Notes: a model not told the origin generated them from the letters alone. Shown: positions 4,020 through 27,285, numbered from the stretch's first letter. The stretch: 64,000 nucleotides of DNA from Candidatus Moraniibacteriota bacterium (GCA_049287005.1 JBAQEZ010000003.1:465084-529083); one strand, 5' to 3'. A program made the numbers and translations.

Positions 4020-4514
4020 CTATTGCTTGGCAGTATTGAAGACGAAAAATTTGTAACCGATGAAGTTCCAAATGAGGGAAAATCCGGTCGCCATCAGTTT
4101 GGCGATGTTGGCCCACAGGACAGCGCTCAAACCGAAGAGCGCCGGGATATAGGTAGTGATGCCGGTCAGGATAAGTCCGTTGATGACAAGGCCGATGATG
4201 CTGATGATGAAAAACTCTGAAAATTTTATCGGTTCTTGTTCTGTTTTTGTCTTGTCTTGGAATGTCCAGCGTTTGTTCATGAAATAGCTGTTGATGACAG
4301 CGACAGAAAAAGAAATGCTGTTGAGCACGAATAATTCCAAGCTGTTCGTGATGCCCGTGACATAGATCAGGGAATTTAAGATAGCGAAATCAATGCCCGT
4401 ATTGATACCGCCAACGATGATGAATTTGGAAAACTGTCTGACGAGTTTCATGAGAGGACTTCGATTCACAGCTGCTGGCGCAAAAGGAACGCCCTGCATC
4501 GCTTCAGTATTCAT
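4020..4514 (-). CDS. GtrA-family membrane protein (polysaccharide synthesis/flippase-associated)
   Basis: 164 aa with four TM helices. The N-terminal FSKFIIVGGINTGIDFAILNSL is typical of the GtrA family. Confidence 0.7.
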   Translation of the reverse strand: MNTEAMQGVPFAPAAVNRSPLMKLVRQFSKFIIVGGINTGIDFAILNSLIYVTGITNSLELFVLNSISFSVAVINSYFMNKRWTFQDKTKTEQEPIKFSEFFIISIIGLVINGLILTGITTYIPALFGLSAVLWANIAKLMATGFSLIWNFIGYKFFVFNTAKQ

Positions 4515-4544
4515 GATGATGTTGCGTGAAGTGTAAATTATGCT

Positions 4545-5339
4545 TTATTGTGCTTGTTTGATTTCTTTTTCGATTTCTTCCATATCGCGCACCCAGGAAT
4601 CGAGCATATGCGTATCGCCACGCACGGCCGAATCACCGGGCTTGATGGGTGAAGTGTCGGCAGGCTGTGCGTCTTTGAGATCCTTTTTCCAATGATTGAT
4701 ACTCTCGTTTTCTTCGGTGGCTTTGGAAAGGGCTGCTTGCCAATCCTCGCGGGCTCCCTTTTGAATGACATTTTCGATAGCGGCCCACGTAGCTCCGGGA
4801 TCATGGGGGGTGACAATAGCCACTTCGTCTCCGGGTGCCGTTTTGAAATAGGTGATCGAAGCCAAAAGGACCCGGTACGGTTTGCCGTCAGCCAGGACAT
4901 AGTAGTTGCCGCTTTCGTCTTGCGTGACGACCGCGATGGCATGGCGTCGATCGATCGGACCGATTTGTTTGTACAAAAAAGCCCCATTGTCAGTGATGGT
5001 GAGTTTCAGCATATCGCCTTCGACGAGCTTGGATTTCGAAGCGTAGTTGGCCGGTACCGGATATTGTTTGCCATCTGTGCCGAGCATAATCTGTCCATCG
5101 AATGTTCCTTCGATGACCGTACCTTCTACCGTATCCAAATCCACCTTGCGCGGACGGCCGGACTTCTTTTTTCCTTCGAGCTGAAGCAGCATCGCCTTTG
5201 CGCCCTGGATAGTCTTCTCGGCGCTCATTACCATATCGCGCAGAGCTTGGATTTTCATCGCCTGCTCTTCGGCATTATGCAGCTCCGGATCAGTGTGGGT
5301 ATTATTATTTGGTGTCATAATTTTGTTTTTTCTAGACAT
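4545..5339 (-). CDS. Hypothetical protein, soluble
   Basis: 264 aa with no catalytic motif recognised. It has a KKKSGRPRK AT-hook-like basic patch and acidic termini, and good coding periodicity. Confidence 0.5.
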   Translation of the reverse strand: MSRKNKIMTPNNNTHTDPELHNAEEQAMKIQALRDMVMSAEKTIQGAKAMLLQLEGKKKSGRPRKVDLDTVEGTVIEGTFDGQIMLGTDGKQYPVPANYASKSKLVEGDMLKLTITDNGAFLYKQIGPIDRRHAIAVVTQDESGNYYVLADGKPYRVLLASITYFKTAPGDEVAIVTPHDPGATWAAIENVIQKGAREDWQAALSKATEENESINHWKKDLKDAQPADTSPIKPGDSAVRGDTHMLDSWVRDMEEIEKEIKQAQ

Positions 5340-5639
5340 TCCAACAGAGCAAAAATCCCCATCGAAACCCCGATCTTTTTTTGTTTGTCTTACGTTGTTA
5401 TTATAAATGTTTTTTGCAATACGCGCAAATATATGTATATCCTGCTTTCTTTACAATGTTATTACGACTTCGGTTACATCTGAGACGCGCAGAGGCAACA
5501 TGATCGCGGTGATAGCAGCCAGGCTTTGGCCTCGTGACCGATTGAAGAATGCCTTGCTTCTTGCAAAAGATACCCGGGGTGGCCGCCTATCGATTTACGA
5601 GGGGAAAAGAGGCACCATGCTGCCGGGCGGGTCATGGGG

Positions 5640-5669
5640 TTGACAAAAAGTAAGAATGTGCGTTAATAT
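5640..5669 (+). promoter_or_regulatory. Candidate sigma70-type promoter
   Basis: TTGACA at 5640..5645, an 18-nt spacer, then TAATAT at 5664..5669, about 40 nt upstream of the 5709 start. Confidence 0.35.
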
Positions 5670-5708
5670 TAATCGATTCAACAGGAGATCAATTAAAGAA
5701 GAATATTT

Positions 5709-6782
5709 ATGGTACAGAGCGACAAAAATCTGTTCAAGACCGATACGGTAAAAAGCAAGCCAGGTTTGTTTTTCGCGCCCGCGTTGGAGCAGTTCCTGCT
5801 GCGTTTGCCGGTACGCTCTCGCGATATCGTGGCGGCTCGTTTCGGCATATCGGATGCACGTCCGAAGACATTGGAAGAAATCGGGCGGACTCACCAGGTC
5901 ACTCGTGAACGTGTCCGTCAGATCATTATCGGTGCTTTAGGATTTCTTTCACAGGAACACAAACACCCCTTGTTCGTGCAAGTGGCTACGCGTATTCTCG
6001 CGGCGCTCGAAGAAAAGAATGGTGTTGCGAGAACCGACGCATTGCTCGATATGCTGGCTTCCTCAGGAGGAAAGGAAAGAGGGGCTTTGCTCGCCTTTAT
6101 CGAATGCTTGGCTCCTATCGAGGAAAAAAAGGCCACGAAGGAATATGAGAAGATGTATGTATCGCAGAGCTTCTCGCTTTCGGAATGGAAAAAAGTGAAA
6201 GATGCGGCCAAGGTCATTTTAGAAGAAGCGAATCAGGCATTGGTCGCGGATGATTTGTATGCTCGTTTTAAGGAGAAAAACAGTACGGTGAGCAAGCAAG
6301 CGCTTTTTGATTATTTGGCTGTGGCCAAAGATGTGCGGCAGAATGTTTTTGGCAAATGGGGGTTGGTAGAATGGAGCGATATCAAACCGCGCGGTACGCG
6401 CGAGAAAGCGTACCTGGTTCTCAAAACGACTGGCAAGCCGCTGCATTTTCGAGAGATCGCCTCGTTGATCGATAGTTATGGACTCAAAAGCAGCAAGAAG
6501 AGCCATAGTCATCCGCAGACAGTGCATAATGAACTGATCAAGGACAAACGTTTCATACTGATCGGTCGCGGCACGTATGCGCTTTCCGAATGGGGATACA
6601 AAAAAGGCACCGTCAAGGAAGTCCTGGAAGAAATTCTCCGTAAGTCCGCTGTCCCGCTTTCTCGCGAGGAAGTGCTCGCGCAAATTCTCAAAGTACGCCA
6701 AGTCAAGAAATCAACAGTTGTTATCAATCTGAATACCTTTTTCCAGCGTGTCGGCAAGAACGCGTACAGTACCAAAAAGTAA
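5709..6782 (+). CDS. Putative DNA-binding regulator: N-terminal sigma-70 region-4-like HTH plus C-terminal HARE-HTH-like winged helix
   Basis: The N-terminus (LRLPVRSRDIVAARFGI..PKTLEEIGRTHQVTRERVRQI) matches the sigma70 r4 consensus. The C-terminus (REIASLI...KRFILIGRGTYALSEWGY) resembles the RpoE-delta/HARE-HTH motif (GRF.AL....WGL..W). There are no sigma regions 2 or 3. Confidence 0.55.
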   Translation: MVQSDKNLFKTDTVKSKPGLFFAPALEQFLLRLPVRSRDIVAARFGISDARPKTLEEIGRTHQVTRERVRQIIIGALGFLSQEHKHPLFVQVATRILAALEEKNGVARTDALLDMLASSGGKERGALLAFIECLAPIEEKKATKEYEKMYVSQSFSLSEWKKVKDAAKVILEEANQALVADDLYARFKEKNSTVSKQALFDYLAVAKDVRQNVFGKWGLVEWSDIKPRGTREKAYLVLKTTGKPLHFREIASLIDSYGLKSSKKSHSHPQTVHNELIKDKRFILIGRGTYALSEWGYKKGTVKEVLEEILRKSAVPLSREEVLAQILKVRQVKKSTVVINLNTFFQRVGKNAYSTKK

Positions 6783-6926
6783 ATGATCATCATGTTTTTT
6801 CCGTCATCAGAGAAAACATGCTAAACTGGTAGGGTGAATTATTCTTTCAGGGGCTTTCGGCTTACATTTGTAAATAATAAGATATCCGCAAGGGATGTCT
6901 GATGGGGTCAACGAACCTCAACGAAC

Positions 6927-8222
6927 ATGGGCATTCTCTTTTCCAGCTTTGCAAGCATATTCTCGCTGATGCGCGATTCTTTTTCTGTCGTGTTTGATGT
7001 TTGGTTTATCATTTTTCCGCCGCTCCTCTTCTTTCTTTTCAAGATCCTTTGGATCCTGTACGTGCAAGGGAGGTATGCTTCGAATCTCAAGTGGGTGCTG
7101 CTCGAGATTATTCCACCGCGAGATGTGGAGAAAAGCCCGATGTTGATGGAGTTCATCTTTAATGGATTCTCCGGTGTCACCAAATCGTCTAATACGGCTG
7201 AGCAGTACATTTTGGGCGAATTTCCGGACTCTTTTTCTTTTGAGATCGCGAGTATCGATGGTCAGGTGCATATGTATGTCCGTACTCGTGAGGGGTATCG
7301 CTCCCTCGTTGAGGGACATTTTTACGCTCAATATCCGGATATCGAAATCGTCGAGGTGCCAGACTATATTTATAATGTGCCGCACACGCTGCCTAATAAG
7401 GATTGGGAGCTGTGGGGAGCTGATTTTGAGCTGCTCAAAGACGATCTGTATCCTATCAGAACCTATAAATATTTTGAGGAAAGTGTCACTGGGAAAATGA
7501 TCGATCCTTTGGCGGGACTGATAGAAACGATGGGTCAATCAAGTCCTGGAACGCATCTGTGGCTCCAGTTTATCGTTACGCCGGAGAAGGAAAGCTGGTA
7601 TGAGACAGGGAGACACACCGTTGATGAATTTCTGGGGAGGGCTGAAGAACACAAGAGTCTTTGGGGCGGACTCTTTTTCGATATCCGGGATGTCTTCTCC
7701 AACCTGATAGGAGGACTGATGGGAAAGGAAGTCGCCTTCGCATCCAAGGAGGGGAAAGAAGAAAAGGATGAGGCACCGGTAGAGTTCCGCCTTACCCCTG
7801 GCGAAAAAGAAATTCTCAAAGCCCTCGAATCAAATTTGGGCAAGTATATGTACAAGGTGCGCATGCGCTATCTGTACATAGCTCGCAAGCCGGTTTTTAG
7901 CAAGCTCTACGGCGTGTCGGCTTTTGTCGGCGGGTTGAAACAATTCACCGATCACAACATGAACAGTTTCAGGCCCAGCGATAGTTCCAAGACCGATGCG
8001 AAATATCTTTTTGCGAAGGAGCGTATGCGGTTTCGTCAGAGACGCCTTTTCCGTCGTTATATGGCACGTGACTCTGACCCTCAGGCCACGCGCTTCTATT
8101 TAAGTTCGGAAGAGCTGGCAACCGTTTTCCATATCCCAGATATGTCTGTTACCGGTCCGGCGTTGACGCGTACCGCCTCAAAACGCGGTGGGGCGCCGGC
8201 CAATCTGCCGATTCAAGAATAA
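6927..8222 (+). CDS. Hypothetical membrane protein, partner of the downstream ATPase
   Basis: 431 aa with N-terminal TM helices (VWFIIFPPLLFFLFKILWILYV) and a large hydrophilic remainder with no known motif. It ends 10 nt before the next gene. Confidence 0.5.
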   Translation: MGILFSSFASIFSLMRDSFSVVFDVWFIIFPPLLFFLFKILWILYVQGRYASNLKWVLLEIIPPRDVEKSPMLMEFIFNGFSGVTKSSNTAEQYILGEFPDSFSFEIASIDGQVHMYVRTREGYRSLVEGHFYAQYPDIEIVEVPDYIYNVPHTLPNKDWELWGADFELLKDDLYPIRTYKYFEESVTGKMIDPLAGLIETMGQSSPGTHLWLQFIVTPEKESWYETGRHTVDEFLGRAEEHKSLWGGLFFDIRDVFSNLIGGLMGKEVAFASKEGKEEKDEAPVEFRLTPGEKEILKALESNLGKYMYKVRMRYLYIARKPVFSKLYGVSAFVGGLKQFTDHNMNSFRPSDSSKTDAKYLFAKERMRFRQRRLFRRYMARDSDPQATRFYLSSEELATVFHIPDMSVTGPALTRTASKRGGAPANLPIQE

Positions 8223-8231
8223 AACAACCTT

Positions 8232-10283
8232 ATGGCACATCACGATCAACATGATATCACTTTTTTCGCCAAGACGAACTTCCGTAATAAGGAAAGGGTG
8301 TTCGGCATCAAGACGGACGATCGGCGTCGGCATATGTACGTCATCGGGAAGACGGGTATGGGCAAGACGAATCTGCTGGAGAATCTGGCGATACAGGATA
8401 TTCAGAAGGGGCATGGCATCGCGTTTATCGATCCTCACGGCGATACGGCGGAAAAATTGATCAAAGCCATTCCTTCCAATCGCATCAATGACGTCATTTA
8501 TCTGAATCCGTCTGATCAGGAGTTTCCAATCGCGTTCAATGTGATGGAAAAAGTCGATCCGGAATACCGGCATCTGGTTGCCTCTGGCCTGGTCGGCGTC
8601 TTCAAGAAAATTTGGGCGGATTCCTGGGGGCCGCGTCTCGAATATATTTTGCGTAATGCTATTCTGGCCTTGCTGGAATATCCGGGGAGTACGCTTCTCG
8701 GCGTCACGCGCATTCTGGTCGACAAATCCTATCGTGCTCGCGTGGTAGAGAAGATCACCGACCCGGTGGTACGCAGCTTTTGGGTAGACGAATTTTCGCA
8801 GTGGAACGATCGCGTGTTGCAGGAAGTGATTTCACCGATTCAGAACAAAGTCGGGCAGTTTCTTTCCAGTTCCCTGATCAGAAACATCGTGGGTCAAACA
8901 GTCTCGTCATTCAATATCCGTGAAGCGATGGATAGCCAGAAGATTCTTATTATCAATCTTTCCAAGGGACGGATCGGTGAGGATAACGGAGCGCTCCTCG
9001 GAGCGATGATGATCACCAAGATCCAGTTGGCCGCGATGGGACGCGTGGATATTCCCGAAGAAGATCGCAAGGACTTCTATCTGTATGTCGATGAATTTCA
9101 GAATTTCGCGACAGAATCATTTGCGAATATTCTTTCCGAAGCGCGCAAATACCACCTCAATCTCATTCTTGCCAATCAGTACGTGACGCAGATCGATGAG
9201 ACGGTACGGGATGCTATCTTCGGCAACGCCGGCTCCCTCATTTCTTTTCGTGTCGGCGCGATGGATGCGGAATTCTTGGAGAAAGAATTCGAACCGGTCT
9301 TCATGATGAACGATATCATCAATCTGCCGAAATATCAGATTTATCTGAAATTGATGATCGATGGTATCGCCGGGGATGCGTTTTCTGCGACGACGCTGCC
9401 GCCGATCAAACTTGAAGACGCCGGCAATGAGGCGAAAATCATCCAAAGTTCACGAGAACGGTATTCTTCAGGGAGAGCGGAAGTGGAAGACAAGATTCGC
9501 CGTTGGAGCGGAATGCTGACAGCGGAAGAGCGGCAGGCGATTGTTGATGAGCAGAAAACCGTCCCTCGTTCAGTTTCGGCGGCAGTGTCGGCACCAGCGC
9601 CAGCAGCGAAACAGCCGCCAAAAGATACTCCGTACCATGAGAAAAGTAAAAGCGTGCCAACGAATATCCGTACCGTGCGCCCGCAGACGCCGCCAGCCTC
9701 GGACAAGCTGTCGGCAAAAAATACGGAAGAACCGCTGAAACAGGATGATTTCAAACCGGCGCTCGCTCCCAAACGGGCACCCTTTGCTTCTTTGGCTGAC
9801 TTGGAACCTCAAGCCGTATCACTCGTAGGAGCATCGGTGGAGATCCCTCGACCAGTGACGGTATCCTCAGAACAAGATGTCGTTTCAGCGGCGTCAGAAA
9901 TGCCGGTCATACCGGAAAAGAAATTGTATCCGGCGCACTGCGCGAGTTGCGGGGCGGACATCGAAGTGCCATTCGTGCCGGACGGCAAACGCCCGACTTT
10001 CTGCAAGGATTGTTTGCGGGATTACCAGCGCTCGGTTGCCAAAGCGCGCAACGAGATAGGAACGAAGGGGAGTCCTCTCGAAACGGTACCTGCCACTCCT
10101 CCACCTACGCCGCACGCGCGCGTGGCACATCTCAAAACCTATACCTCCAGTGAGGCGCCGATGTCGCTTGCTCAGATGGGGCATATCGGACCGAAGAAAT
10201 TCAAATCGCTCCATCATCGTCCAGCTGTCAATCTGAGCGAGGTACGCGCTCTCATAGATGCCAGGAGAAAAGCGGAAGAATAA
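8232..10283 (+). CDS. Coupling-protein-like P-loop ATPase (VirD4/TraD/TrwB-like, FtsK-HerA superfamily) with a C-terminal zinc ribbon
   Basis: No N-terminal TM. Walker A is YVIGKTGMGKTN and a FIDPHGD motif follows 25 aa later. Walker B is LYVDEFQNF, then LILANQYVTQID. A Pro/Ala/Ser-rich linker leads to CASCGADIEVPFVPDGKRPTFCKDC (CxxC-x17-CxxC). Confidence 0.7.
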   Translation: MAHHDQHDITFFAKTNFRNKERVFGIKTDDRRRHMYVIGKTGMGKTNLLENLAIQDIQKGHGIAFIDPHGDTAEKLIKAIPSNRINDVIYLNPSDQEFPIAFNVMEKVDPEYRHLVASGLVGVFKKIWADSWGPRLEYILRNAILALLEYPGSTLLGVTRILVDKSYRARVVEKITDPVVRSFWVDEFSQWNDRVLQEVISPIQNKVGQFLSSSLIRNIVGQTVSSFNIREAMDSQKILIINLSKGRIGEDNGALLGAMMITKIQLAAMGRVDIPEEDRKDFYLYVDEFQNFATESFANILSEARKYHLNLILANQYVTQIDETVRDAIFGNAGSLISFRVGAMDAEFLEKEFEPVFMMNDIINLPKYQIYLKLMIDGIAGDAFSATTLPPIKLEDAGNEAKIIQSSRERYSSGRAEVEDKIRRWSGMLTAEERQAIVDEQKTVPRSVSAAVSAPAPAAKQPPKDTPYHEKSKSVPTNIRTVRPQTPPASDKLSAKNTEEPLKQDDFKPALAPKRAPFASLADLEPQAVSLVGASVEIPRPVTVSSEQDVVSAASEMPVIPEKKLYPAHCASCGADIEVPFVPDGKRPTFCKDCLRDYQRSVAKARNEIGTKGSPLETVPATPPPTPHARVAHLKTYTSSEAPMSLAQMGHIGPKKFKSLHHRPAVNLSEVRALIDARRKAEE

Positions 10284-10339
10284 TCACCTTGTTTCAAGGG
10301 GATATTTTTGGTATCATAAAAAAATGAACTGAGATATAT

Positions 10340-10450
10340 ATGAGTTTTCATAAATGGCATAAGCGTGCCTACAAAATCTGGGTGGTGGTGTCGATTCTCG
10401 TAGTCATATCTATGGTAGGGTTTCTTGTGGCGCCTTTTTTTCTTTCTTAA
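10340..10450 (+). CDS. Possible 36-aa single-TM peptide
   Basis: ATG..TAA encodes MSFHKWHKRAYKIWVVVSILVVISMVGFLVAPFFLS. It sits between the ATPase and ftsB and is below the ORF-track size cutoff. Confidence 0.3.
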   Translation: MSFHKWHKRAYKIWVVVSILVVISMVGFLVAPFFLS

Positions 10451-10453
10451 CCT

Positions 10454-10849
10454 ATGGCGGCGAAACAGAGATGGTGGATAAAGATAGTGATCGGCGCAGT
10501 GGTTATTTTGAGTGGTTGGGGCCTTTTCGTCTCTTTGAAGCAAGTGGAGAGGAGTCGCCGTATTCAGGAAGATATCTCCTCTCTGGAGGCTGAAGGTGCC
10601 AAGATACAGCGTGAAAATGAGACCCTTGCCCAGAGAATCAGTTATTTTGCTACGGATGATTATCGTGAACGCATAGCCAAGAGTCAGCTCGATTTGAAAA
10701 AAGCAGACGAAACAGTCGTGGAAATCAAGCTCCAGCCGGACGACACCACGGGAGGGAAGATCGCTTCAGAAAAGATGCGGCAGGTATCGGAGAGTGATGG
10801 AAGCGAGAATATGCCAAATTATAAAAAGTGGTGGAGAATATTTTTTTGA
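10454..10849 (+). CDS. ftsB: Septum formation initiator family protein (FtsB/DivIC-like)
   Basis: 131 aa with one TM followed by a coiled-coil (IQEDISSLEAEGAKIQRENETLAQRI). Confidence 0.65.
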   Translation: MAAKQRWWIKIVIGAVVILSGWGLFVSLKQVERSRRIQEDISSLEAEGAKIQRENETLAQRISYFATDDYRERIAKSQLDLKKADETVVEIKLQPDDTTGGKIASEKMRQVSESDGSENMPNYKKWWRIFF

Positions 10850-10869
10850 AAGGCCCATAACGAAAACAT

Positions 10870-11931
10870 ATGCCGCAGACGACAAAAAGTTTATTGAAAA
10901 AGATTCATACGAGTACGCTGTTGTACGCGATGCTTATCGTCCTCATGCTGGTCTTTGCGGGGAGTTTGATTGCCGTGTACGCTGTTCCTTCGGAGTCGAA
11001 TACCGCCCTGCATCGGTTGAAGAATGCATTGCCGTATCCGATAGTGATTATGAATTATCGCGATGGCATCACGTTCCGTGCGCTTGCTCAAAACATGACT
11101 TCGGTCAAGCGTTTCTATGAAACGCAGGACTTTTCCAAAGTCGGTTTGCGTGTCGATTTTTCTACGCCGGATGGCCAAAAACGTTTTCAGGTGAGAGAGA
11201 AAGAAGTACTCAATAAAATGATTGAAGATCAGGCCATTAAAATGGTGGCGAGAGAACAAGGCATCATCGTCAGCCGTGATGAGGCGACACAGGGGGTAGC
11301 GCGCAAATTGGAAGAATATGGCAGCGGCGAAGAGGTCAAGGGCGAGCTGGAGCGTCTGTACGGCTGGACTTTGGCTGATTTTGAAGAAAAGGTCGTCATG
11401 CCGAGCCTGTACCAAGAGAAACTGCAAGCACGTTTCGCGCAGGATGGAGACGCTTCGGCCGCGGCGAAAGAGAAAATTCTGGCTGCACAGGCCTCGTTGC
11501 AGGCCGGTCAATCTTTCTCCGATGTGGCGAAGAAATATTCAGAGGGTGACACCGCGCAAGATGGGGGTGATTTGGGATGGTTTGGACTCGCGGATTTGGT
11601 ACCGGAACTCCGTACGCTCGTCACGACACAGAAGATCGGAGTGCCAGGAGACGTGGTGGAGAGCGGGTTGGGCTTCCATATTGTTCTGGTAGAAGAAATG
11701 AAAAAAGAAGATACGAAGCAGCTGTATCGTCTGAAGCAGATTTTCACCCGAAAAACGACCTTCGCTGATTTCCTCTCTGAAAAGATGCGCGGACTCTCCG
11801 TGCTTGTCTTGTCTCCGGAATATCAGTGGGATGCCGAGGCGGCGCGCGTAGAATTCCGCAAGCAAGCATTGCGGGATTTCGAGAAAAATCTTTATGAACA
11901 GGCGGATGGCGACGCAGCGTTCCTCTTCTGA
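10870..11931 (+). CDS. Parvulin-type peptidyl-prolyl isomerase, SurA/PrsA-like membrane-anchored foldase
   Basis: N-terminal signal anchor. The rotamase motifs AKKYSEGDTAQDGGDLGWF and GFHIV are present. Confidence 0.8.
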   Translation: MPQTTKSLLKKIHTSTLLYAMLIVLMLVFAGSLIAVYAVPSESNTALHRLKNALPYPIVIMNYRDGITFRALAQNMTSVKRFYETQDFSKVGLRVDFSTPDGQKRFQVREKEVLNKMIEDQAIKMVAREQGIIVSRDEATQGVARKLEEYGSGEEVKGELERLYGWTLADFEEKVVMPSLYQEKLQARFAQDGDASAAAKEKILAAQASLQAGQSFSDVAKKYSEGDTAQDGGDLGWFGLADLVPELRTLVTTQKIGVPGDVVESGLGFHIVLVEEMKKEDTKQLYRLKQIFTRKTTFADFLSEKMRGLSVLVLSPEYQWDAEAARVEFRKQALRDFEKNLYEQADGDAAFLF

Positions 11932-20457: not shown

Positions 20458-21588
20458 GTGATAAAAGAGCATATGCAAATAGCCGTACAAGCAAGCGACC
20501 TGGATGCGAAGAGGATCGACGGGACACGCGTGTATCTGAAGGAGCTCCTCAGTCGTTTCGGTCAGGCTTCGCCAGAGGTTGAGTTTGTGCTGTATCATCA
20601 GACCGCGTTCAACCCGGAACTCGTACCGAAAGTATGTGTTCAATATCAGATCAAGACGCGTCCTTTTCCCTTCGCCTGGATGCAGACCAGATTTCTTTGG
20701 GAGATCCTGCGTCACAAGCCAGAAAAATTGTTCTTACCGATCCAAGCAGCTCCTGTTTTTGTTTCTCGAGCGACCGAGGTGACCGTGACGATACACGATC
20801 TCGCCTTCAAGCGGTATCCGGCCACGTTTCCCAGACAGCATTTGCTGAAGCTCAATTTCTTGCTTGGTGTCGCGGTGCATCGGGCGGACAAGCTGATTGC
20901 CGTTTCGCAGTCCACCAAGGATGACCTGTTGGAGTTTTTCCCCAAGCTTCCGACAGGGCGCATCCGCGTGATTCATCATGGTTTCGACAGCGAATTTTTC
21001 GGCACGCGACTTTCCGCTGAGGAACTTTCTGATACTTTAAAAACTTTCCACTTGCAACCGGCAACCTATGCCTTGTATGTCGGGGCGTTACAACCACGAA
21101 AAAATCTCGCCCGTTTGATCGAGGCATTCGATATCGCCAAGCAGAGCATGTTCGAAATGAAATTGGTGCTTGTGGGGGAGAGAGCCTGGCTGGCGGATGA
21201 GATTTTCGCAGCGCGTGACAAGAGCCCATACAAAGAAGACATCATCATGACCGGTCCGGTGGATTTCGCGGCGTTGCGCGCCTTGTATCAGGGGGCGCGG
21301 TTGTTCGTATTCCCGTCGCTCTATGAAGGTTTCGGGTTGCCGATTCTCGAGGCCTTCGCCTCCCGTGTGCCCGTACTGACAGCGGGCAATTCCAGCTTGA
21401 CGGAGGTTGGCGGCAGGGCAGCTCTCTATGCGAATGCTCTGAGCACGGACGATATAGCGGCAAAATTGGAACGGTTGTGGAGCGATGAAGAATTGCGAAA
21501 GGAGCTCGTGCGGAGAGGAGAAGAGCAGCTGAAAAAATTCTCTTGGGACAAGTGCGCGCAAGAAACTCTGGAATATATCAAAAGTTGA
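20458..21588 (+). CDS. Glycosyltransferase family 4 (GT-B fold)
   Basis: C-terminal FPSLYEGFGLPILEAFASRVPVLTAGNSSLTEVGG is the GT1/GT4 signature. Confidence 0.8.
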   Translation: MIKEHMQIAVQASDLDAKRIDGTRVYLKELLSRFGQASPEVEFVLYHQTAFNPELVPKVCVQYQIKTRPFPFAWMQTRFLWEILRHKPEKLFLPIQAAPVFVSRATEVTVTIHDLAFKRYPATFPRQHLLKLNFLLGVAVHRADKLIAVSQSTKDDLLEFFPKLPTGRIRVIHHGFDSEFFGTRLSAEELSDTLKTFHLQPATYALYVGALQPRKNLARLIEAFDIAKQSMFEMKLVLVGERAWLADEIFAARDKSPYKEDIIMTGPVDFAALRALYQGARLFVFPSLYEGFGLPILEAFASRVPVLTAGNSSLTEVGGRAALYANALSTDDIAAKLERLWSDEELRKELVRRGEEQLKKFSWDKCAQETLEYIKS

Positions 21589-21597
21589 TATTTTATT

Positions 21598-21745
21598 TCC
21601 CACCGCAAGAGTCTTTCCGAAGGAGATGAAGTTCTTTTGTCTGTCCCGTACCACCGAACGGCACGTTCGGGCGGGGGCACAGTGTCGTCGTCTACGCGGA
21701 CGAACGCCCTCCGGGGAAGCCGCTTGCGGTGGAAAATTCGTTATA
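21598..21745 (+). other. Candidate structured RNA or leader element upstream of the ABC-F gene
   Basis: A 10-bp long-range pairing ccaccgcaag (21601..21610) with cttgcggtgg (21722..21731) encloses a GC-rich segment. That segment contains a perfect 7-bp hairpin, ccgaacg-gca-cgttcgg. Confidence 0.3.
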
Positions 21746-21819
21746 AGACTGGATGCTTGTAGAGAATAGAATTCTGTGTCACAATACTTCTGCCGTTTAG
21801 CGGCTTTTTTGTTTACTTT

Positions 21820-23277
21820 ATGGCCAAGGATAACGTCGTCATGAGATTCGATAAAGTGTCCTTCGAATACGGGCACAAGAAACCCATTTTGGATGAGGTG
21901 AGTTTCAGTATGCGGGGCGGTTCCAAGGTAACGCTCATGGGGCAGAACGGTGCTGGGAAAAGTTCTCTGTTCAAGCTCATCACCGGCGAAGAAAAGCCGC
22001 AATCCGGGCGTGTCTCTCTGGATCCCGGAGCCACGGTCGCGATCGGGCGCCAGACCATTCCGCGGGATCAGCTGGATCTCACGGTAAAAGATTTTTTTGA
22101 TCAATTTTTCAATGGTAAGGAATGGGAACTGGCGATGCATATCAAAGAAGTATTGGGAGTGGTGAATCTGCCTCTGCCGCCGCTTGAGAAGAAAATACGG
22201 GAGTTTTCCGGCGGGCAGCAGGCGCGCCTCCTCTTGGCTTCGGCGCTGATTCAGGATCCGGATATCCTTCTTCTCGATGAGCCGACGAACAACCTGGATT
22301 ACGCCGGCATCACCCATCTGACGCAGTTCCTGATCGATTATGAGAAAACTTGCATCGTCATTTCCCATGATGCGGAATTCTTGAATTCGTTCACGCACGG
22401 CGTGCTGTATCTCGACGTGTTTACGCACAAGATCGAGCAGTACACGGGAGATTACTACGACGTGATGGAAGAGATCGCCAAAAGGATCACCAAGGCGCAG
22501 AGCGAGAACGTCCGGCTGGAACGGACTATTCAGGAAAAGAAAGATCAAGCGAACGTATTTGCCAACAAGGGAGGAAAACTGCGTGCAGTGGCCAAGCGGA
22601 TGCGCGATCTGGCGACCGATCTGGAAGAAAACAAAGTGGACGTGAGACAGGAAGACAAAACCCTGCCGGGCTTCGAGATACCGTGCCGGGAACCTGTCGG
22701 ACCGATCGTGAATATCAAGACGGTCAAAGTGCTGACGGAATTGGGACCGGCGATCAAGCGCGTCGAGCTGGTTTTGAAGAAAAATATGCATCTCTTGGTA
22801 TCGGGACCGAACGGTATCGGCAAGAGCACGTTTCTCGAAGCCCTCGCCTCAGGCGACGAAGAGCGGGCGCATATCACGGAAGGGATGAAGGTCGGCTATT
22901 ACCGTCAGGATTTTTCGACTCTGGATTTCGAGAGTACGGTGATGGAGACGCTTCTTTTGGTGATGGAAGAAAAGAGCAATGAACTGGCCTACAAGATTGC
23001 CACCAAATTCCTCATCCCAGCGGAACTGATACAGAACAAAGTCGAGAGTTTGTCGGAAGGGCAGAAAGGCCTCCTCATGTTCGCCCAGCTCTATGCCGAG
23101 AAGCCAGATCTCCTGATCCTCGATGAGCCGACCAATCATATCAACTTCCGTCATCTGCCGGTCATTGCCGAAGCTTTGGACAAATACAAGGGCGCGATGA
23201 TTCTCGTTTCCCACGTGCCGGATTTCGTCGCGCAGATCCGCATCGACGAAGTGCTGGATCTGGAATCTTTGGTTTGA
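21820..23277 (+). CDS. ABC-F family ATPase (tandem ABC domains, no TM domain)
   Basis: Two sets of Walker A, signature and Walker B motifs: GQNGAGKSS / FSGGQQARL / LLLDEPTNNLD and GPNGIGKST / LSEGQKGLL / LILDEPTNHIN. Confidence 0.85.
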   Translation: MAKDNVVMRFDKVSFEYGHKKPILDEVSFSMRGGSKVTLMGQNGAGKSSLFKLITGEEKPQSGRVSLDPGATVAIGRQTIPRDQLDLTVKDFFDQFFNGKEWELAMHIKEVLGVVNLPLPPLEKKIREFSGGQQARLLLASALIQDPDILLLDEPTNNLDYAGITHLTQFLIDYEKTCIVISHDAEFLNSFTHGVLYLDVFTHKIEQYTGDYYDVMEEIAKRITKAQSENVRLERTIQEKKDQANVFANKGGKLRAVAKRMRDLATDLEENKVDVRQEDKTLPGFEIPCREPVGPIVNIKTVKVLTELGPAIKRVELVLKKNMHLLVSGPNGIGKSTFLEALASGDEERAHITEGMKVGYYRQDFSTLDFESTVMETLLLVMEEKSNELAYKIATKFLIPAELIQNKVESLSEGQKGLLMFAQLYAEKPDLLILDEPTNHINFRHLPVIAEALDKYKGAMILVSHVPDFVAQIRIDEVLDLESLV

Positions 23278-23324
23278 TTCTCCTCTGTGTTCTCTCATGG
23301 GAGTCTCTGGAATCAATGCTGAAT

Positions 23325-23354
23325 ATAAAAAAACACTCTGTTAGGAGTGTTTTT
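23325..23354. terminator. Bidirectional rho-independent terminator
   Basis: An A-run at 23325..23330, stem aacactc/gagtgtt with loop tgttag at 23331..23350, then TTTT. It sits between the ABC-F gene (+) and the lmo0937-like gene (-). Confidence 0.5.
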
Positions 23355-23376
23355 TGCTGGCTGCGAAAGATGTACA

Positions 23377-23523
23377 TCATACAACGCTGCGACCTTGGAG
23401 TAGACGCACTACTATCAAGATGAGCGCGATGACGAGCAGGATATGAAGTAGCCCGCCCAGCGTGTAGGAAGTGATGAATCCTAAGAACCAGAGGATGATC
23501 AAGATTATAATGATGGTCCACAT
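23377..23523 (-). CDS. lmo0937-family small membrane protein
   Basis: Not in the ORF track. The 48-aa product is MWTIIIILIILWFLGFITSYTLGGLLHILLVIALILIVVRLLQGRSVV, which matches the lmo0937 family pattern (WLLGF...LIHLLLVIA..LI.RLIQGR). Confidence 0.6.
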   Translation of the reverse strand: MWTIIIILIILWFLGFITSYTLGGLLHILLVIALILIVVRLLQGRSVV

Positions 23524-23714
23524 ACTCTTTTTATTACATGAATGAGATCGATACTCTCTTGTGCACTGTTTGGTGTCGACCTCGCCTGCAAGTTTTGTAG
23601 GTGCACCTTTGCACGGTATACGCTATCAAGTATTAAGTAACGTCAGAATCAGAAGTATCCGCATTATACCATGAATGCAGATTTATTCAATCTCTTGCTC
23701 AAATATTGGAAATA

Positions 23715-24140
23715 TCAGACTTCCTCGTCGAAGAGAATTTTCCAAAAGAGAAAGCCTACGAGGAGAAAGGTAGCGATGATGAGAGGGATAAGAAGCGGAG
23801 GGAAGTTGAAGAGCGAGATCGCAAGGATGCCGATGGTCCAGAGTAATCCGAGCCAAACGAGCGGATTTTTTTTCTGTATTTTCCAATCGAAATTGAGATC
23901 CAGGACGTGTCCCAAGAAAACCAGGACGAAGGAGAAAGACAAAAGGACAAAGAAAAATTTGGTGAGACTCAGGTGCGCGGTTACGAATGTCGGGAGGAGT
24001 ATCTCTATTGTGAACAGCGAGGCGAAAGCAAGGTAGCCGATGAAGAGCATTTCAGTCAGGAGCGCATAGCAAACAGTCAGCCCCCCGCTTGCTTTCAGAC
24101 GGATTAGTTGTTCTGTCAGATACTCGGTTGGGTTTTTCAT
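23715..24140 (-). CDS. Hypothetical membrane protein
   Basis: 141 aa with four predicted TM helices and no motif. Confidence 0.45.
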   Translation of the reverse strand: MKNPTEYLTEQLIRLKASGGLTVCYALLTEMLFIGYLAFASLFTIEILLPTFVTAHLSLTKFFFVLLSFSFVLVFLGHVLDLNFDWKIQKKNPLVWLGLLWTIGILAISLFNFPPLLIPLIIATFLLVGFLFWKILFDEEV

Positions 24141-24148
24141 AGGAATGG

Positions 24149-25324
24149 TTATTGACTGATACCGAAGCGCGAGAGGAGGCGCTGTTTAATCTGCGAGAGT
24201 ATCAAAAGCATGTTGTGTTTGCTTTTTTCTGTTTCGAACGAAACTTGGAGTGCGTTGATATCGATATCCGTATCGTTATTTCCGAGTGTTATTTCGAAAT
24301 CATTACCGACACCGGAAGGGAGTGAAACGATCGGTGTTTGACAGGAAAATGTCTGTCCGAAAAATCCCGGCTTGAGAATGCAGCTGACCCGTTCTTCGCT
24401 GGCAACGGATGAGACGATGATAGGAGCTTGCCGCTTGCTGATGAATTCGCGGTAGTTGTCGTCGATGAGCGGACGTTTGGAATTATTTTCCACCAGGTAG
24501 TAGGTATTGGTGTCGCGATCGAAGAGCAGTGTTCCATCGGGATGCTGAGCCCCCAGGAGAAATATACGGCCTCTTTTATAGATACCGATTTCCTCTTCAC
24601 TGGCCGGCCGGACGTCTTCGAATCTGTAGCCGAGGGCGAGGAGGATGTCAGCGCTTCCGATGGGACGCATTTCGGTATTGCTCATGATGAGGAACACACC
24701 GTCGGCGAAAGACACCATCGATCCCACACGATAGCCGATCCAGTTTTCGGATATAGGGTAGTCAGCTAGGAAATCCTTGCTCTCTGGGATGGCGAAGGAA
24801 TCCGGATACCGCGACAAGTAGGCGTTGTCGCTGACAAAGGGGTAGAGGCTGCCGTCTCGGAGCGCATAATAGACAGTATCGACTTTGTAGAGCGATTCTG
24901 CGGGGAAGCCTGTGATAGGCCGACCGGTGGGCAGTAAGAAGCTCCGGTAGGAACGTCGCAGGGAAACATTGAGAGTGTTGGGGCGTGTGGATTTCTTTTC
25001 CAGCGTGAGAGAAATCAGCGCTTGAGAAAATTCTCCCGTGACACTGGCGGTAGCGATGAGCATTCCGTCTTTCCCGATTTTGCCGTTCGTACGAGGGGTG
25101 TTGTCCGTGGCATGCGGATCCAGCAGCGTGTTGCTGCTGGAATCAGGCGTGCGGAAGTTGAAAGAGAAGAAAAGCGTGGGAAACAGTATGCGTAAGGCAA
25201 AAACAATAGTGCTGGCAATCACGATTGCATACAAAAACGCGCGTGCTATCTGGTAGTAGCGCTGAAAATGATGAGGGATGAGAATAGGAGATTGAAACAT
25301 CTTAGTAGATTTGGAATAAATCAT
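24149..25324 (-). CDS. Hypothetical membrane-anchored extracytoplasmic protein
   Basis: 391 aa with an N-terminal signal anchor, rich in Ser, Thr and Asn. It overlaps the start of the upstream GT-C gene by 23 nt, so they are probably an operon. Confidence 0.5.
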   Translation of the reverse strand: MIYSKSTKMFQSPILIPHHFQRYYQIARAFLYAIVIASTIVFALRILFPTLFFSFNFRTPDSSSNTLLDPHATDNTPRTNGKIGKDGMLIATASVTGEFSQALISLTLEKKSTRPNTLNVSLRRSYRSFLLPTGRPITGFPAESLYKVDTVYYALRDGSLYPFVSDNAYLSRYPDSFAIPESKDFLADYPISENWIGYRVGSMVSFADGVFLIMSNTEMRPIGSADILLALGYRFEDVRPASEEEIGIYKRGRIFLLGAQHPDGTLLFDRDTNTYYLVENNSKRPLIDDNYREFISKRQAPIIVSSVASEERVSCILKPGFFGQTFSCQTPIVSLPSGVGNDFEITLGNNDTDIDINALQVSFETEKSKHNMLLILSQIKQRLLSRFGISQ

Positions 25325-27104
25325 TACGTGTCTCCTTGAGGACTTTTTCCGGCAGATGGGGAGTCTTACTCAGGTTATTTTCGAGAGAAGTACTTTCAAG
25401 TTGGATACTGGAAAACGTGACCGTTTTTTTGAACACGAGGCGATCGCCAAACACGGAGACATAGCGCGCCTGATCACCGTCTGGCACGAGGAGATAGGTA
25501 TGCGTGAAAGGAGTGAGATTTATCCGTGCCAGATCATCTGGGTTGAAGAAATACGCCATATTTTTTCCGGACAAATATTGGGCTGGGCCGGTGAGCATAG
25601 CGAAGCCATCGCCGGTAGCGTTCCGGTCGACCAAAACGAGATCGGTATCAGAAAATTCTTGACTGAAAGCGGCAATCTGCTTATCCAGTCCCTGATTTTC
25701 CGCAAACGGCAATCCGTAGCTGAAGGCGGGGTACTCGAGAGCGATCAGGCCGAGAAAGATCATACTGACAAAAAAGAGCCGCTTGCCTTGTGGCATCTCG
25801 ATCGGAAACATCTTCTCTTTGGCAAAGAGGAGTGCTATGCCTACCACAGCCGAAAACAACAGTGCAGGGAACAGAGAGAAGAGATAGCGCCGGAGCATCC
25901 ACGGATGATCGAGTGAGATATTGGGATCGAAGAGGTAGACAAACGTAGGCAGAGCCACCAAGGCTGGCAAAAACGCTTTCAGGCGCTTTTCTTTGATAAA
26001 AATAAGTATTCCAAACACACCGAAAGCGAACAGCGCGAGCAGGCCGTAGAGGAAAAAAACCGAGCCCAGCGTAAAGGGACCGCCGGTACTGGCGAGGTCG
26101 CCGGTGACGCTGCCGGAACCCGATTGACGGAGAAATTTCTCGAGTGCCTTGCCGATCATTTTGTAATAGGGGAGGTTGATAAAAAAATCACGCAAAAAAA
26201 TGAAAGTGAAGAGTATCCCCGGGAGGACGATGCTTTTCCATGGATAGGTTGTCCAGATATGTCGGGTCGGCTTGCTCACGAACAGCACCATGACAGCGAG
26301 AGCAAGAAAGGCAAATCCCTCTATGCGCGTGAAGGCGAACAATCCTCCCGAGAGGAGTATGCCGGCGTAAGAGATGAACTTTCCTTCTTGGAGGAAAAGA
26401 ATGAGATTCCACACCAGAAAGACGAAAAGAAAGAGGGCGAGATTTTCGCTCAAAGTGACTTTCGCGAACCAGGTGGGGAGAAAAGAGAAGATGGCGAGCG
26501 CTAGTCCGGCAGAGGCGTAAAAAGGATGGACGAAGACGCGGAGGAGGGCGTAGAGTGTCGTTAGAAAAAGAAAGAGGAGGATGCTGTTACCGATCACCAG
26601 GCCGTGCACGCCGAAAAGAGAAACGAAGGAAGCAAGCCATGCCGTGTAACCGAGAGGAAATTGAGTAATCAGATCGCCTGTCTTGGTATAGGCAAAACCG
26701 GGAAAATTCAGAGCCGTGCCTTCGCCGTAGATCTGGAAAAAAATTTCACTGGCTGCGGTAGAAAAAGCGAGGTGTCCATTGTGCGCCAAGCGCGTCGCGG
26801 CCTCCGCTATGGATCCTTGGTCGCGTCCGGAAAAAAGGGTGGGAACAGACAATGAGCCGATCAGCACAGACATAAAGAGCGAAATAAGAACCGCTATTTT
26901 GAAATCAGGCGTGGCACGGAGGATCACTTTTGTGCTGATAATGAGAACAATGGCCAAAACCAGGGCCGCGCCGGAAACAATCAGCGGGAACAGAAAGAGG
27001 TCGCTCAGAGCCAGCAGAAAAACAAACCAGCCGAAGAGAATGAAAGAGAGTCCGAACAGGACGAACAAAGTGTCAGTTTTTTCAATTGGAGAGAAGAATT
27101 TCAT
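25302..27104 (-). CDS. GT-C fold glycosyltransferase (GT39/ArnT/PMT-like), polytopic membrane protein
   Basis: About 600 aa from the internal Met (MKFFSPIEK at 27104). It has more than ten TM helices, an acidic first-loop motif SGRDQGSIAEAA and a large C-terminal extracytoplasmic domain. The ORF-track start at 27293 overlaps the divergent clp-like gene and is unlikely to be real. Confidence 0.55.
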   Translation of the reverse strand: MKFFSPIEKTDTLFVLFGLSFILFGWFVFLLALSDLFLFPLIVSGAALVLAIVLIISTKVILRATPDFKIAVLISLFMSVLIGSLSVPTLFSGRDQGSIAEAATRLAHNGHLAFSTAASEIFFQIYGEGTALNFPGFAYTKTGDLITQFPLGYTAWLASFVSLFGVHGLVIGNSILLFLFLTTLYALLRVFVHPFYASAGLALAIFSFLPTWFAKVTLSENLALFLFVFLVWNLILFLQEGKFISYAGILLSGGLFAFTRIEGFAFLALAVMVLFVSKPTRHIWTTYPWKSIVLPGILFTFIFLRDFFINLPYYKMIGKALEKFLRQSGSGSVTGDLASTGGPFTLGSVFFLYGLLALFAFGVFGILIFIKEKRLKAFLPALVALPTFVYLFDPNISLDHPWMLRRYLFSLFPALLFSAVVGIALLFAKEKMFPIEMPQGKRLFFVSMIFLGLIALEYPAFSYGLPFAENQGLDKQIAAFSQEFSDTDLVLVDRNATGDGFAMLTGPAQYLSGKNMAYFFNPDDLARINLTPFTHTYLLVPDGDQARYVSVFGDRLVFKKTVTFSSIQLESTSLENNLSKTPHLPEKVLKETRNDLFQIY

Positions 27105-27210
27105 ATCGGTTTCATTATACCTCAAAGGCGTATATTTCTTCAATGAGTCGTTGGATGAATAAAAATCATGACACCTCCCGGAGCAGGCGGGCTCCTCGCT
27201 GCCATGTGGT

Positions 27211-27239
27211 TTGCCAAGCGTCTTGAATGTGTTTACAAT
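27211..27239 (+). promoter_or_regulatory. Sigma70-type promoter for the membrane Clp-like gene
   Basis: TTGCCA at 27211..27216, a 17-nt spacer, then TACAAT at 27234..27239, 47 nt upstream of the ATG at 27286. Confidence 0.45.
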
Positions 27240-27285
27240 GAAGCGAGGAATGGGGAAACGAAGCTTAATTTCTGAAGTATAAAAA

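Follow-up and report, generated by a model that had tools for sequence, protein, structure and literature searches.

Patescibacteria form a huge, mostly uncultured radiation in which the type IV secretion system (T4SS) is essential for epibiotic life in the sole species tested, and the patescibacterial T4SS was previously reported without a recognizable coupling protein. Orphan homologs of type IV coupling proteins (T4CPs) have already been published for this group. A 2025 survey counted thousands of them, in 2,918 of 3,035 genomes; 148 of the 5,713 homologs lay near virB4, VirB4 was found in 2,417 genomes, and the role of the homologs was left open, with exaptation as a possibility (Quiñonero-Coronel et al., PMC12102498). 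In Sulfolobales, CedB and CedD combine a transmembrane (TM) anchor, a partial domain resembling the N-terminal domain (NTD) of VirB4, plus a motor of the FtsK/HerA superfamily, and DNA import needs them (PMC11868833). This study examined a 64-kb stretch of DNA (hereafter the window) from a Candidatus Moraniibacteriota genome (Patescibacteria, candidate phyla radiation), in which two adjacent genes at 6927-10283 encode a DUF8128 protein and a T4CP-family ATPase. The two are a conserved, strongly constrained pair consisting of a membrane-anchored VirB4-NTD-like module and a T4CP-type motor. In related lineages and in Bacillus phage G, the split pair equals one fused protein of 725-1140 aa.

The open reading frame (ORF) listing places a 431-aa gene at 6927-8222 (+) and, after a spacer of 9 nt (8223-8231), a 683-aa gene at 8232-10283 (+). 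An earlier note on this DNA, made from the sequence alone, described the pair and its common orientation correctly; its spacing of 10 nt was one too many. A protein annotated in a metagenome-assembled genome of Candidatus Moraniibacteriota is identical to the ATPase. The two genes are in a common reading frame in the window, as they are in only 18 of 51 loci; thus the shared frame is due to chance, and read-through of the in-frame stop codon between them was ruled out. The features of the pair are as follows.

6927-8222, + strand: DUF8128 (PF26449) partner, 431 aa, from the precomputed Pfam annotation of the exact protein
6987-7067, + strand: N-terminal W/F-rich hydrophobic helix, residues ~21-47, membrane anchor (Kyte-Doolittle 2.27)
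7089-8141, + strand: soluble domain, residues ~55-405, with a VirB4-NTD-like fold
8142-8219, + strand: disordered, conserved C-terminal tail (...AKRGGAPxNLPxQE), residues 406-431, candidate docking peptide (predicted local distance difference test, pLDDT, below 50)
8232-10283, + strand: T4CP-family ATPase, 683 aa, with C-terminal zinc ribbon (ORF plus Pfam and NCBIfam)
8313-9521, + strand: motor domain, residues 28-430, a P-loop nucleotide-binding domain (NBD) in which a predicted helical insert separates Walker A from Walker B (PF10412 over residues 28-323)
9552-9911, + strand: Pro/Ala/Ser/Val-rich flexible linker, residues 441-560 (composition; pLDDT below 50)
9918-10019, + strand: CxxC-x17-CxxC treble-clef zinc ribbon, residues 563-596 (PF23477, TIGR04272; pLDDT ~90)
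10149-10280, + strand: conserved basic C-terminal tail motifs (...SLAQ...PKKFK...VNLxEVRxLI...), from the alignment (A4)

The ATPase contains every motif that the earlier note had listed, namely Walker A (G39KTGMGKT46, 8346-8369), D67PHGD71, Walker B (L284YVDEFQNF292, 9081-9107) and A314NQY317, and an alignment of 43 diverse homologs shows no change in its catalytic residues. The Pfam models TrwB_AAD_bind (PF10412; 38.3 bits, cutoff 20.5) and TraG-D_C (PF12696; 24 bits, cutoff 22) matched above their cutoffs, and DUF87/HerA scored 26.7 bits. A sequence search of PDB returned TrwB (1e9r, 9e-9) and DotL (9e-5), and a profile search returned TrwB (1.3e-7), DotL (5e-7) and HerA (2e-3), with VirB4 absent from the matches. 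NCBIfam VirB4 models gave E values of 0.006-0.016 (TIGR00929, 0.016), the Pfam models AAA_10 and CagE_TrbE_VirB had no match in the ATPase, and hhalign against a patescibacterial VirB4 aligned 66 columns, the P-loop only. With TrwB and DotL as the top PDB matches, VirB4 absent, and the VirB4 alignment confined to the P-loop, the motor belongs, on sequence evidence, to the T4CP lineage and not to VirB4. This agrees with the coupling-protein-like ATPase of the earlier note. The curated T4CP equivalog and subfamily models (TraD, CD1115, TrbC) all stayed below threshold, the best score being 46.1 bits for TIGR03743 against a cutoff of 366, and the NCBIfam matches to TraD, CedD and VirD4-like proteins were weak and limited to the P-loop. 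The AlphaFold2 (AF2) model of the full-length ATPase was poor (pLDDT 54.6; predicted template modeling score, pTM, 0.29), probably due to the shallow alignment and the disordered tail. For this reason the T4CP assignment rests on sequence profiles. About 240 residues separate Walker A from Walker B, and residues 110-235 are helical in this low-confidence model, which is consistent with a region resembling the all-alpha domain of T4CPs.

No TM-like segment was found in the ATPase (maximum 19-residue Kyte-Doolittle value, 1.27), and 64 of 68 homologs likewise have no hydrophobic segment, as the earlier note had claimed for the N-terminus. Behind the motor, residues 441-560 consist of 15% Pro, 14% Ala and 12% Ser; the length of this linker is highly variable among homologs, whose ATPases range from 480 to 743 aa. 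The zinc ribbon reported earlier is a genuine appendage typical of the family: zf_Tbcl_2 (PF23477) matched residues 563-596 with 43.4 bits (cutoff 27, 2.6e-11), TIGR04272 (CxxC-x17-CxxC) matched with 46 bits (cutoff 36, 3.2e-12), the cysteines (C570-x2-C573-x17-C591-x2-C594) are invariant in the alignment, and 49 of 68 complete ATPases of the split form carry the motif. Zinc binding by this domain family has been shown experimentally in small proteins of Methanosarcina (M. mazei; PMC12704099). The motifs 'VDLxxLRxxI' and a terminal 'PGExIKF' recur in distant ATPase homologs, with or without the zinc ribbon. Short linear motifs are also kept in otherwise disordered tails of both proteins (DUF8128, 8142-8219; ATPase, 10149-10280; loci L003-L082), and these are candidate docking peptides. 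A set of 46 sequences shows no variation at A423, P424, N426, L427 and P428 of the partner tail, and a diverse set of 45 sequences shows none at P424 and P428.

The partner belongs to DUF8128, a family of 1756 clusters at 50% identity (HMMER search); all 120 homologs among the matches listed carry the same annotation, and a literature search for DUF8128 returned no paper. The claim that the partner supplies the TM helices stands in that a separate, conserved membrane anchor exists, and falls in that there is no helix bundle: residues ~21-47 are the sole hydrophobic stretch, and the other ~380 residues are soluble and mostly VirB4-NTD-like. A hydrophobic N-terminal segment was found in 76 of 77 homologs at a Kyte-Doolittle value of at least 1.2, and in 55 of 77 at a value of at least 1.6. 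The AF2 model of the partner (pLDDT 72.9, pTM 0.71) shows a long N-terminal helix, continuous over residues 2-51, an alpha/beta body and a disordered C-terminal tail. In a Foldseek search with this model, 14 TrwK chains ranked first (E values 2.7e-5 to 6.6e-3), and the VirB4-NTD-like fold was obtained by two independent methods. The fold-match lists contained no P-loop ATPase other than VirB4, suggesting that the match is to the domain specific to the VirB4 N-terminus. At the sequence level, the DUF8128 profile had no match among PDB sequences, and hhalign gave no match to the VirB4-like gp155 of phage G or to a patescibacterial TraC-like protein, so that the link to the VirB4 NTD is structural and the homology remote. 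The body of the partner is thus predicted to be a VirB4-NTD-like module, presumably cytoplasmic.

To investigate the distribution of the pair, each GTDB species was scanned through one of its genomes. DUF8128 was found in at least 590 GTDB species, and the best 80 species matches were all of Patescibacteria type, although a few records are labeled otherwise. Seven loci (L006, L009, L010, L014, L019, L062 and L071) are of Patescibacteria type under titles of Bdellovibrionales, Gammaproteobacteria or Bathyarchaeia; these bins or contigs are probably mislabeled. The matches of the two proteins co-occur on contigs, and 76 of 82 loci have the ATPase gene directly 3' of the DUF8128 gene, at a median distance of 22 nt, which confirms a conserved gene pair. 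Across lineages, the motor domain is 54-83% identical and the partner 29-52%, and the remaining neighbors are housekeeping genes that vary. Conservation of such a motor in hundreds of species, within a housekeeping context, supports the earlier view that the pair is no remnant of conjugation; a mobile-element remnant was ruled out on the same grounds.

Fused relatives carry the two modules in one protein. PHROG 5156, a profile of 824 positions, covers both proteins in colinear order, the partner with positions 27-254 and the ATPase with positions 407-813. Its member gp156 of Bacillus phage G (825 aa) is 28% identical to the ATPase over 94% of the motor, and hhalign of the DUF8128 profile against residues 29-320 of gp156 gave a probability of 98.1% (E 1e-13). 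When gp156 was used as a query, the database yielded many patescibacterial proteins of 725-1142 aa, from Berkel-, Falkow-, Gottesman- and Saccharibacteria, whose annotation names PF26449 as well as PF10412. In 95 of 120 gp156-like or patescibacterial proteins, the N-terminal part corresponds to the partner and the C-terminal part to the ATPase, in this order, and for one fused protein (P0429) a single high-scoring segment pair of the tblastn search spans the stop codon in the window. The fused proteins are 22-30% identical to the window's pair in the DUF8128 part and 41-60% in the motor. None of them carries the zinc ribbon; the sole carrier among the 120 sequences is not fused. A subfamily of 728 aa has a motor 55% identical to that of the window and no N-terminal hydrophobic helix. 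In a rough neighbor-joining (NJ) distance tree, one major clade (I) comprises both this subfamily and the split group of the window, in which the pair is linked to a gene for a sigma-70 region 4/HARE-HTH protein. Clade II holds a Saccharibacterial protein of 945 aa, whose context (Mg-chelatase ... DUF11/CLIPPER-gyrB-gyrA) is that of SEML1_0142 in Southlakia epibionticum. At one further locus (L088, 4899-10784), two tandem fused DUF8128-containing paralogs of 831 and 927 aa adjoin secD-secF. SPO1-like and other Bacillus phages encode more distant T4CP-like ATPases.

The fused relatives also connect the family to type IV secretion. At three independent loci, the 728-aa fused gene stands divergently beside genes for PrgI (VirB3-like), a TraC-like protein, VirB4 and an M23 peptidase, near dnaN, and in two of the three, T4SS_pilin genes lie on the other flank. 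Two of these T4SS loci by dnaN (L087, 1-7927, and JGI 3300075153) encode PrgI, a TraC-like protein of 218 aa (PF26593) and a VirB4 of 628-646 aa; in another (L086, 1-7872), VirB4 is present as two ORFs (387 and 231 aa), with an unannotated ORF of 108 aa at the position of the TraC-like gene. VirB4 in patescibacterial T4SS loci may therefore be accompanied by a separate NTD-like protein. In phage G, gp156 comes after the TrbL/VirB6-like gp153 and the VirB4-like gp155, and the three make up a mini T4SS-like set (L083, 86975-98282). The earlier note had seen an orphan minimal device in the pair. This does not hold, since fused relatives with a motor 55% identical adjoin T4SS loci and phage G has a similar arrangement, which comes close to what the note itself had named as speaking against it, namely an ATPase that groups with the coupling protein of an intact T4SS elsewhere in the genome.

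On the 5' side, the pair has a conserved neighbor that the earlier note did not mention.

5709-6782, + strand: protein of 357 aa with sigma-70 region 4 (residues 30-77) and a HARE-HTH domain resembling the delta subunit of RNA polymerase (RNAP) (residues 232-295), from Pfam

Pfam matches to this protein were significant for Sigma70_r4 (3e-10) and HARE-HTH (4e-15), and the RNAP delta model TIGR04567 scored 40.3 bits (cutoff 42). In 68 of 77 loci the gene lies immediately 5' of the DUF8128 gene and shares its strand, at a median distance of 58 nt, and secD-secF is found just upstream of it in 38 of 80 GTDB loci. The same order occurs in S. epibionticum, for which transposon sequencing data are available (Wang et al. 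2023, PMC10633639). Here SEML1_0294 (349 aa) has the same architecture, with Sigma70_r4 at 27-72 and HARE-HTH at 225-283, and is essential. It stands immediately 5' of SEML1_0293, a T4CP-like gene that, unlike the pair in the window, encodes a single protein of 921 aa (PF10412 at 402-719); this is presumably a fused protein with the ATPase domain from about residue 400. SEML1_0293 is non-essential, and its normalized reads fell from 5817 to 2940 and 1372, a drop of about 4-fold over the outgrowth. Its domains in Table S2 are PF10412, PF12696 and PF01935 only, with the zinc ribbon unrecorded. Both SEML1_0293 and SEML1_0294 were flagged as core, Patescibacteria-enriched families. The paralog SEML1_0142 (1019 aa) is essential, as are nearly all T4SS genes (SEML1_0006-0019; SEML1_0012 was called non-essential) (PMC10633639). 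By synteny, the pair in the window corresponds to the dispensable paralog SEML1_0293, and it is probably co-transcribed with the gene for an essential sigma-region-4/HARE-HTH protein that binds DNA or RNAP.

These results lead us to a reading that we hold at about even likelihood: the pair is a split T4CP/VirB4-hybrid motor specific to Patescibacteria that serves as an accessory substrate receptor of the phylum's T4SS, most plausibly for DNA or nucleoprotein. DUF8128 would be anchored in the cytoplasmic membrane by its lone N-terminal helix and present the VirB4-NTD-like domain to the cytoplasm. The ATPase would supply a TrwB/TraD-like NBD with its helical insert and, by analogy with TrwB, may form a hexameric ring. 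This ring may be docked to the membrane via DUF8128, which would substitute for the N-terminal TM domain of canonical T4CPs in an arrangement analogous to VirB4, EccE/EccC and CedB/D. The flexible tail, the zinc ribbon and the short peptide motifs could capture a substrate or an adaptor. The pair would thus act as a membrane-associated receptor and motor that works with a monoderm-type T4SS presumably encoded elsewhere in the genome and handles an accessory class of substrate, most plausibly DNA or nucleoprotein. A receptor role in the T4SS is favored because close relatives lie in T4SS loci and the T4SS of Patescibacteria has otherwise no coupling protein; DNA or nucleoprotein is favored as the substrate because of the zinc ribbon and the HTH neighbor; and the role is thought to be accessory because SEML1_0293 is non-essential while SEML1_0142 and the T4SS genes are essential. 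Several points weigh against this reading. No T4SS gene was found in the 64 kb of the window, and the conserved neighbor is a transcription-type protein and no part of a T4SS. No relaxase was found at any locus examined, and DNA binding by the zinc ribbon is putative. T4CP-like proteins occur in more genomes (96%) than VirB4 (80%), and some members may thus work without a T4SS. Since the T4SS is essential and SEML1_0293 is not, the clade of the window cannot be the indispensable energizer of the T4SS. The all-alpha domain, the ring and the interface with the partner are predictions in view of the poor ATPase model, and the NJ tree has no support values.

The main rival is exaptation as a T4SS-independent membrane DNA translocase, which we consider a real possibility, though an unlikely one. 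Alone or with the sigma-region-4/HARE-HTH protein, the pair would pull or organize DNA; possible settings include uptake of DNA for recombination or to salvage nucleotides, the handling of chromosomes or plasmids, and the tethering of transcribing DNA, and the zinc ribbon could orient DNA as an analog of FtsK-gamma. The gene trio that includes a DNA- or RNAP-binding protein, kept in most loci and in Southlakia, points in this direction, as do the housekeeping context with no T4SS genes nearby, the excess of T4CP-like genes over VirB4, and the restriction of the zinc ribbon to split forms linked to the sigma/HARE gene. Exaptation was also raised by the authors of the survey (PMC12102498), and CedB/CedD are a precedent for DNA import by a like architecture. 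However, the nearest fused relatives lie within T4SS loci, DUF8128 provides one helix per subunit, and the operon contains no channel protein. The sigma/HARE gene is essential and the ATPase is dispensable, which argues against a single indispensable function in common, and Southlakia already has comEC-dependent transformation (PMC12857230). A related view is that DUF8128 and the T4CP-like motor represent a third, hitherto undefined lineage of secretion or translocation ATPases, a hybrid of VirB4 NTD and T4CP motor with an ancestral VirB4/T4CP link, and that the clade of the window is an autonomous, T4SS-free translocase of nucleic acids found throughout the phylum. This is distinctly unlikely in our judgment; such a translocase would be coupled to the transcription-type DNA-binding protein, for example for DNA acquisition or for membrane handling of transcribed DNA in these ultrasmall cells.

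Three other explanations were considered. The pair could be a motor of protein translocation or envelope biogenesis that recruits protein substrates as DotL does and is linked to Sec and to envelope chaperones. The position of secD-secF next to the sigma/HARE gene and beside the tandem fused paralogs, the PpiC and HtrA chaperones and proteases 3' of the pair in the window, DotL among the top sequence relatives, and tail peptides of a kind typical of adaptor docking are compatible with this; yet the SecDF and chaperone neighbors are housekeeping genes whose linkage is restricted by lineage (that of the chaperones to Moranbacteria), no effector or adaptor genes were identified, and the zinc ribbon and HTH neighbor suggest nucleic acid over protein, which makes the explanation highly unlikely. 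Still less probable, and a very remote prospect, is the earlier note's idea of a segregation device, in the form of an FtsK-like apparatus for chromosome segregation or division that acts with FtsB at the septum. The motor is of the FtsK/HerA superfamily, the gene is in the core genome, and an ftsB/DivIC gene lies 170 nt 3' of the pair in the window; but ftsB is a neighbor in only 12 of 82 loci, two of them from the same genome's own contigs and the others from close Moranbacteria. Together with ppiC, it follows the pair in close Moranbacteria only. This removes the sole positional support for a role in segregation or division, and the ftsB linkage was ruled out as confined to close relatives. 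In addition, the FtsK_SpoIIIE motor and the gamma winged-helix domain had no match in the ATPase (Pfam, NCBIfam), FtsK is mentioned in papers on the Saccharibacterium TM7x, and the Southlakia ortholog is dispensable. An anti-phage defense module or mobile-element remnant is barely credible. It could draw on a match of the PADLOC model mad8 (MADS) to the ATPase (4.4e-17), on MzaA of the MZA defense system as the best NCBIfam match of region 4 in the upstream protein, and on the homologs in Bacillus phages. Defense islands and mobile elements are patchy, whereas the pair is conserved near-universally at a single syntenic locus, with strong purifying selection on the motor. The GC content is unremarkable, and the window scans turned up neither further MADS or MZA genes nor an integrase or a relaxase, PADLOC having been run on the two query proteins only. 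A MADS/MZA module was therefore rejected on the basis of conservation and of the syntenic housekeeping context, despite the two matches.

Two signals flank the sigma/HARE-DUF8128-ATPase genes.

5640-5669, + strand: promoter-like site TTGACA-18-TAATAT, candidate operon promoter ~40 nt 5' of the sigma-70 region 4/HARE-HTH gene; best regional match (10/12), suggestive only
10287-10299, + strand: terminator-like hairpin with a T-run behind it, 4 nt past the ATPase stop codon; weak (5 pairs), suggestive only

They fit a three-gene operon and are no proof of it; the promoter and terminator scan as a whole showed no enrichment over shuffled sequence. An Rfam scan of 4500-11000 revealed no RNA family. 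The genes 3' of the pair encode a DivIC/FtsB-like protein, a PpiC rotamase, two HtrA-like proteases and a DUF5656 protein, in line with the ftsB and envelope chaperones named in the earlier note. The rest of the window, which is even and unremarkable in GC content, consists of housekeeping genes (dnaX, aminoacyl-tRNA synthetases, secDF, penicillin-binding protein, DnaJ, RecJ, ABC/MacB transporters and glycosyltransferases). The absence of T4SS and conjugation genes from the 64 kb, noted before, was borne out, though not as an absolute one: Pfam and NCBIfam scans of ~47 ORFs, several of them without a family match, found no VirB4, relaxase, pilin, PrgI or second paralog, and tblastn gave no further match to the PrgI, TraC-like, VirB4 and M23 proteins of Patescibacteria or to the VirB4- and VirB6-like proteins of phage G.

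Some other genes in the window are worth recording. SecD (46890-48617, +) is of unusual architecture, with a PpiC-type peptidyl-prolyl isomerase domain (residues 151-235) inserted between the first SecD domain and the P1 head. A block at 21088-27293 (-) contains five ORFs (567, 155, 141, 391 and 663 aa) without a Pfam match; tblastn found no match between this block and patescibacterial T4SS proteins, and the 663-aa ORF is weakly similar to the putative glycosyltransferases LA_3751/LA_3752. A 264-aa protein at 4545-5339 (-) has no family match, and related loci of Moranbacteria keep it in the same place (cluster 8).

The literature searched had no description of the DUF8128 partner with its VirB4-NTD-like fold, of the dichotomy of split and fused forms, of the two paralogous clades of opposite essentiality, of the sigma/HARE operon or of the distribution of the zinc ribbon. 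This study adds that orphan T4CP homologs carry a DUF8128 VirB4-NTD-like module, either fused or as an adjoining gene, and that at least two paralogous clades, opposite in essentiality in Southlakia, can be told apart among them, with some members inside T4SS loci. The clade of the window has gained a zinc ribbon and is co-encoded with the essential sigma-region-4/HARE-HTH protein. A fold and a partner are thereby assigned to a domain of unknown function. The family provides one or more testable candidates for the missing substrate-recruiting ATPases of the patescibacterial T4SS, and it may link VirB4 to coupling proteins in evolution.

Compared with known systems, the ATPase shares with T4CPs (TrwB of R388, TraD, VirD4 and DotL) a P-loop NBD with GxxGxGKT, DPxGD, hhhhDE and a Q-containing sensor segment, the domains PF10412 and PF12696, and close homologs encoded in T4SS loci; a helical insert separating Walker A from Walker B is predicted as well. 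T4CPs are its nearest PDB sequences, and as in F TraD, it has a flexible C-terminal tail with docking motifs. It differs from them in the absence of an N-terminal TM domain from the same polypeptide; the anchor is instead a separate protein with a VirB4-NTD-like domain, which canonical T4CPs lack. It also differs in its C-terminal zinc ribbon, in having no relaxase, in lying usually far from virB4, in scoring far under the NCBIfam equivalog cutoffs, and in being a chromosomal core gene of a whole phylum and not a mobile-element gene. VirB4 (TrwK of R388; PDB 7o42 and 8rtd) resembles the combined or fused protein in its layout of NTD followed by motor and in size (725-1140 aa). However, the motor sequence is not of VirB4 type, NTD and motor are split in the window, and at the sequence level the partner is unlike VirB4 or a TraC-like/TrsD-type T4SS protein. 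CedB and CedD, which likewise join a TM anchor, a VirB4-NTD-like domain and a motor, are analogous in architecture only: they are archaeal, they are single polypeptides, their motor is of the HerA/VirB4 clade and not the T4CP clade, and their NCBIfam models matched the ATPase below threshold (CedD, 31.9 bits, cutoff 600, 5.4e-8; CedB, 22.1 bits, cutoff 700). The fused DUF8128-T4CP proteins and phage G gp156 (PHROG 5156) differ in being single polypeptides without a zinc ribbon, in lacking the N-terminal helix (the 728-aa subfamily and gp156), and in their context, which is a T4SS locus, the gyrBA region, dnaX or secDF. Nevertheless, they contain both modules of the window's pair, in the same order.

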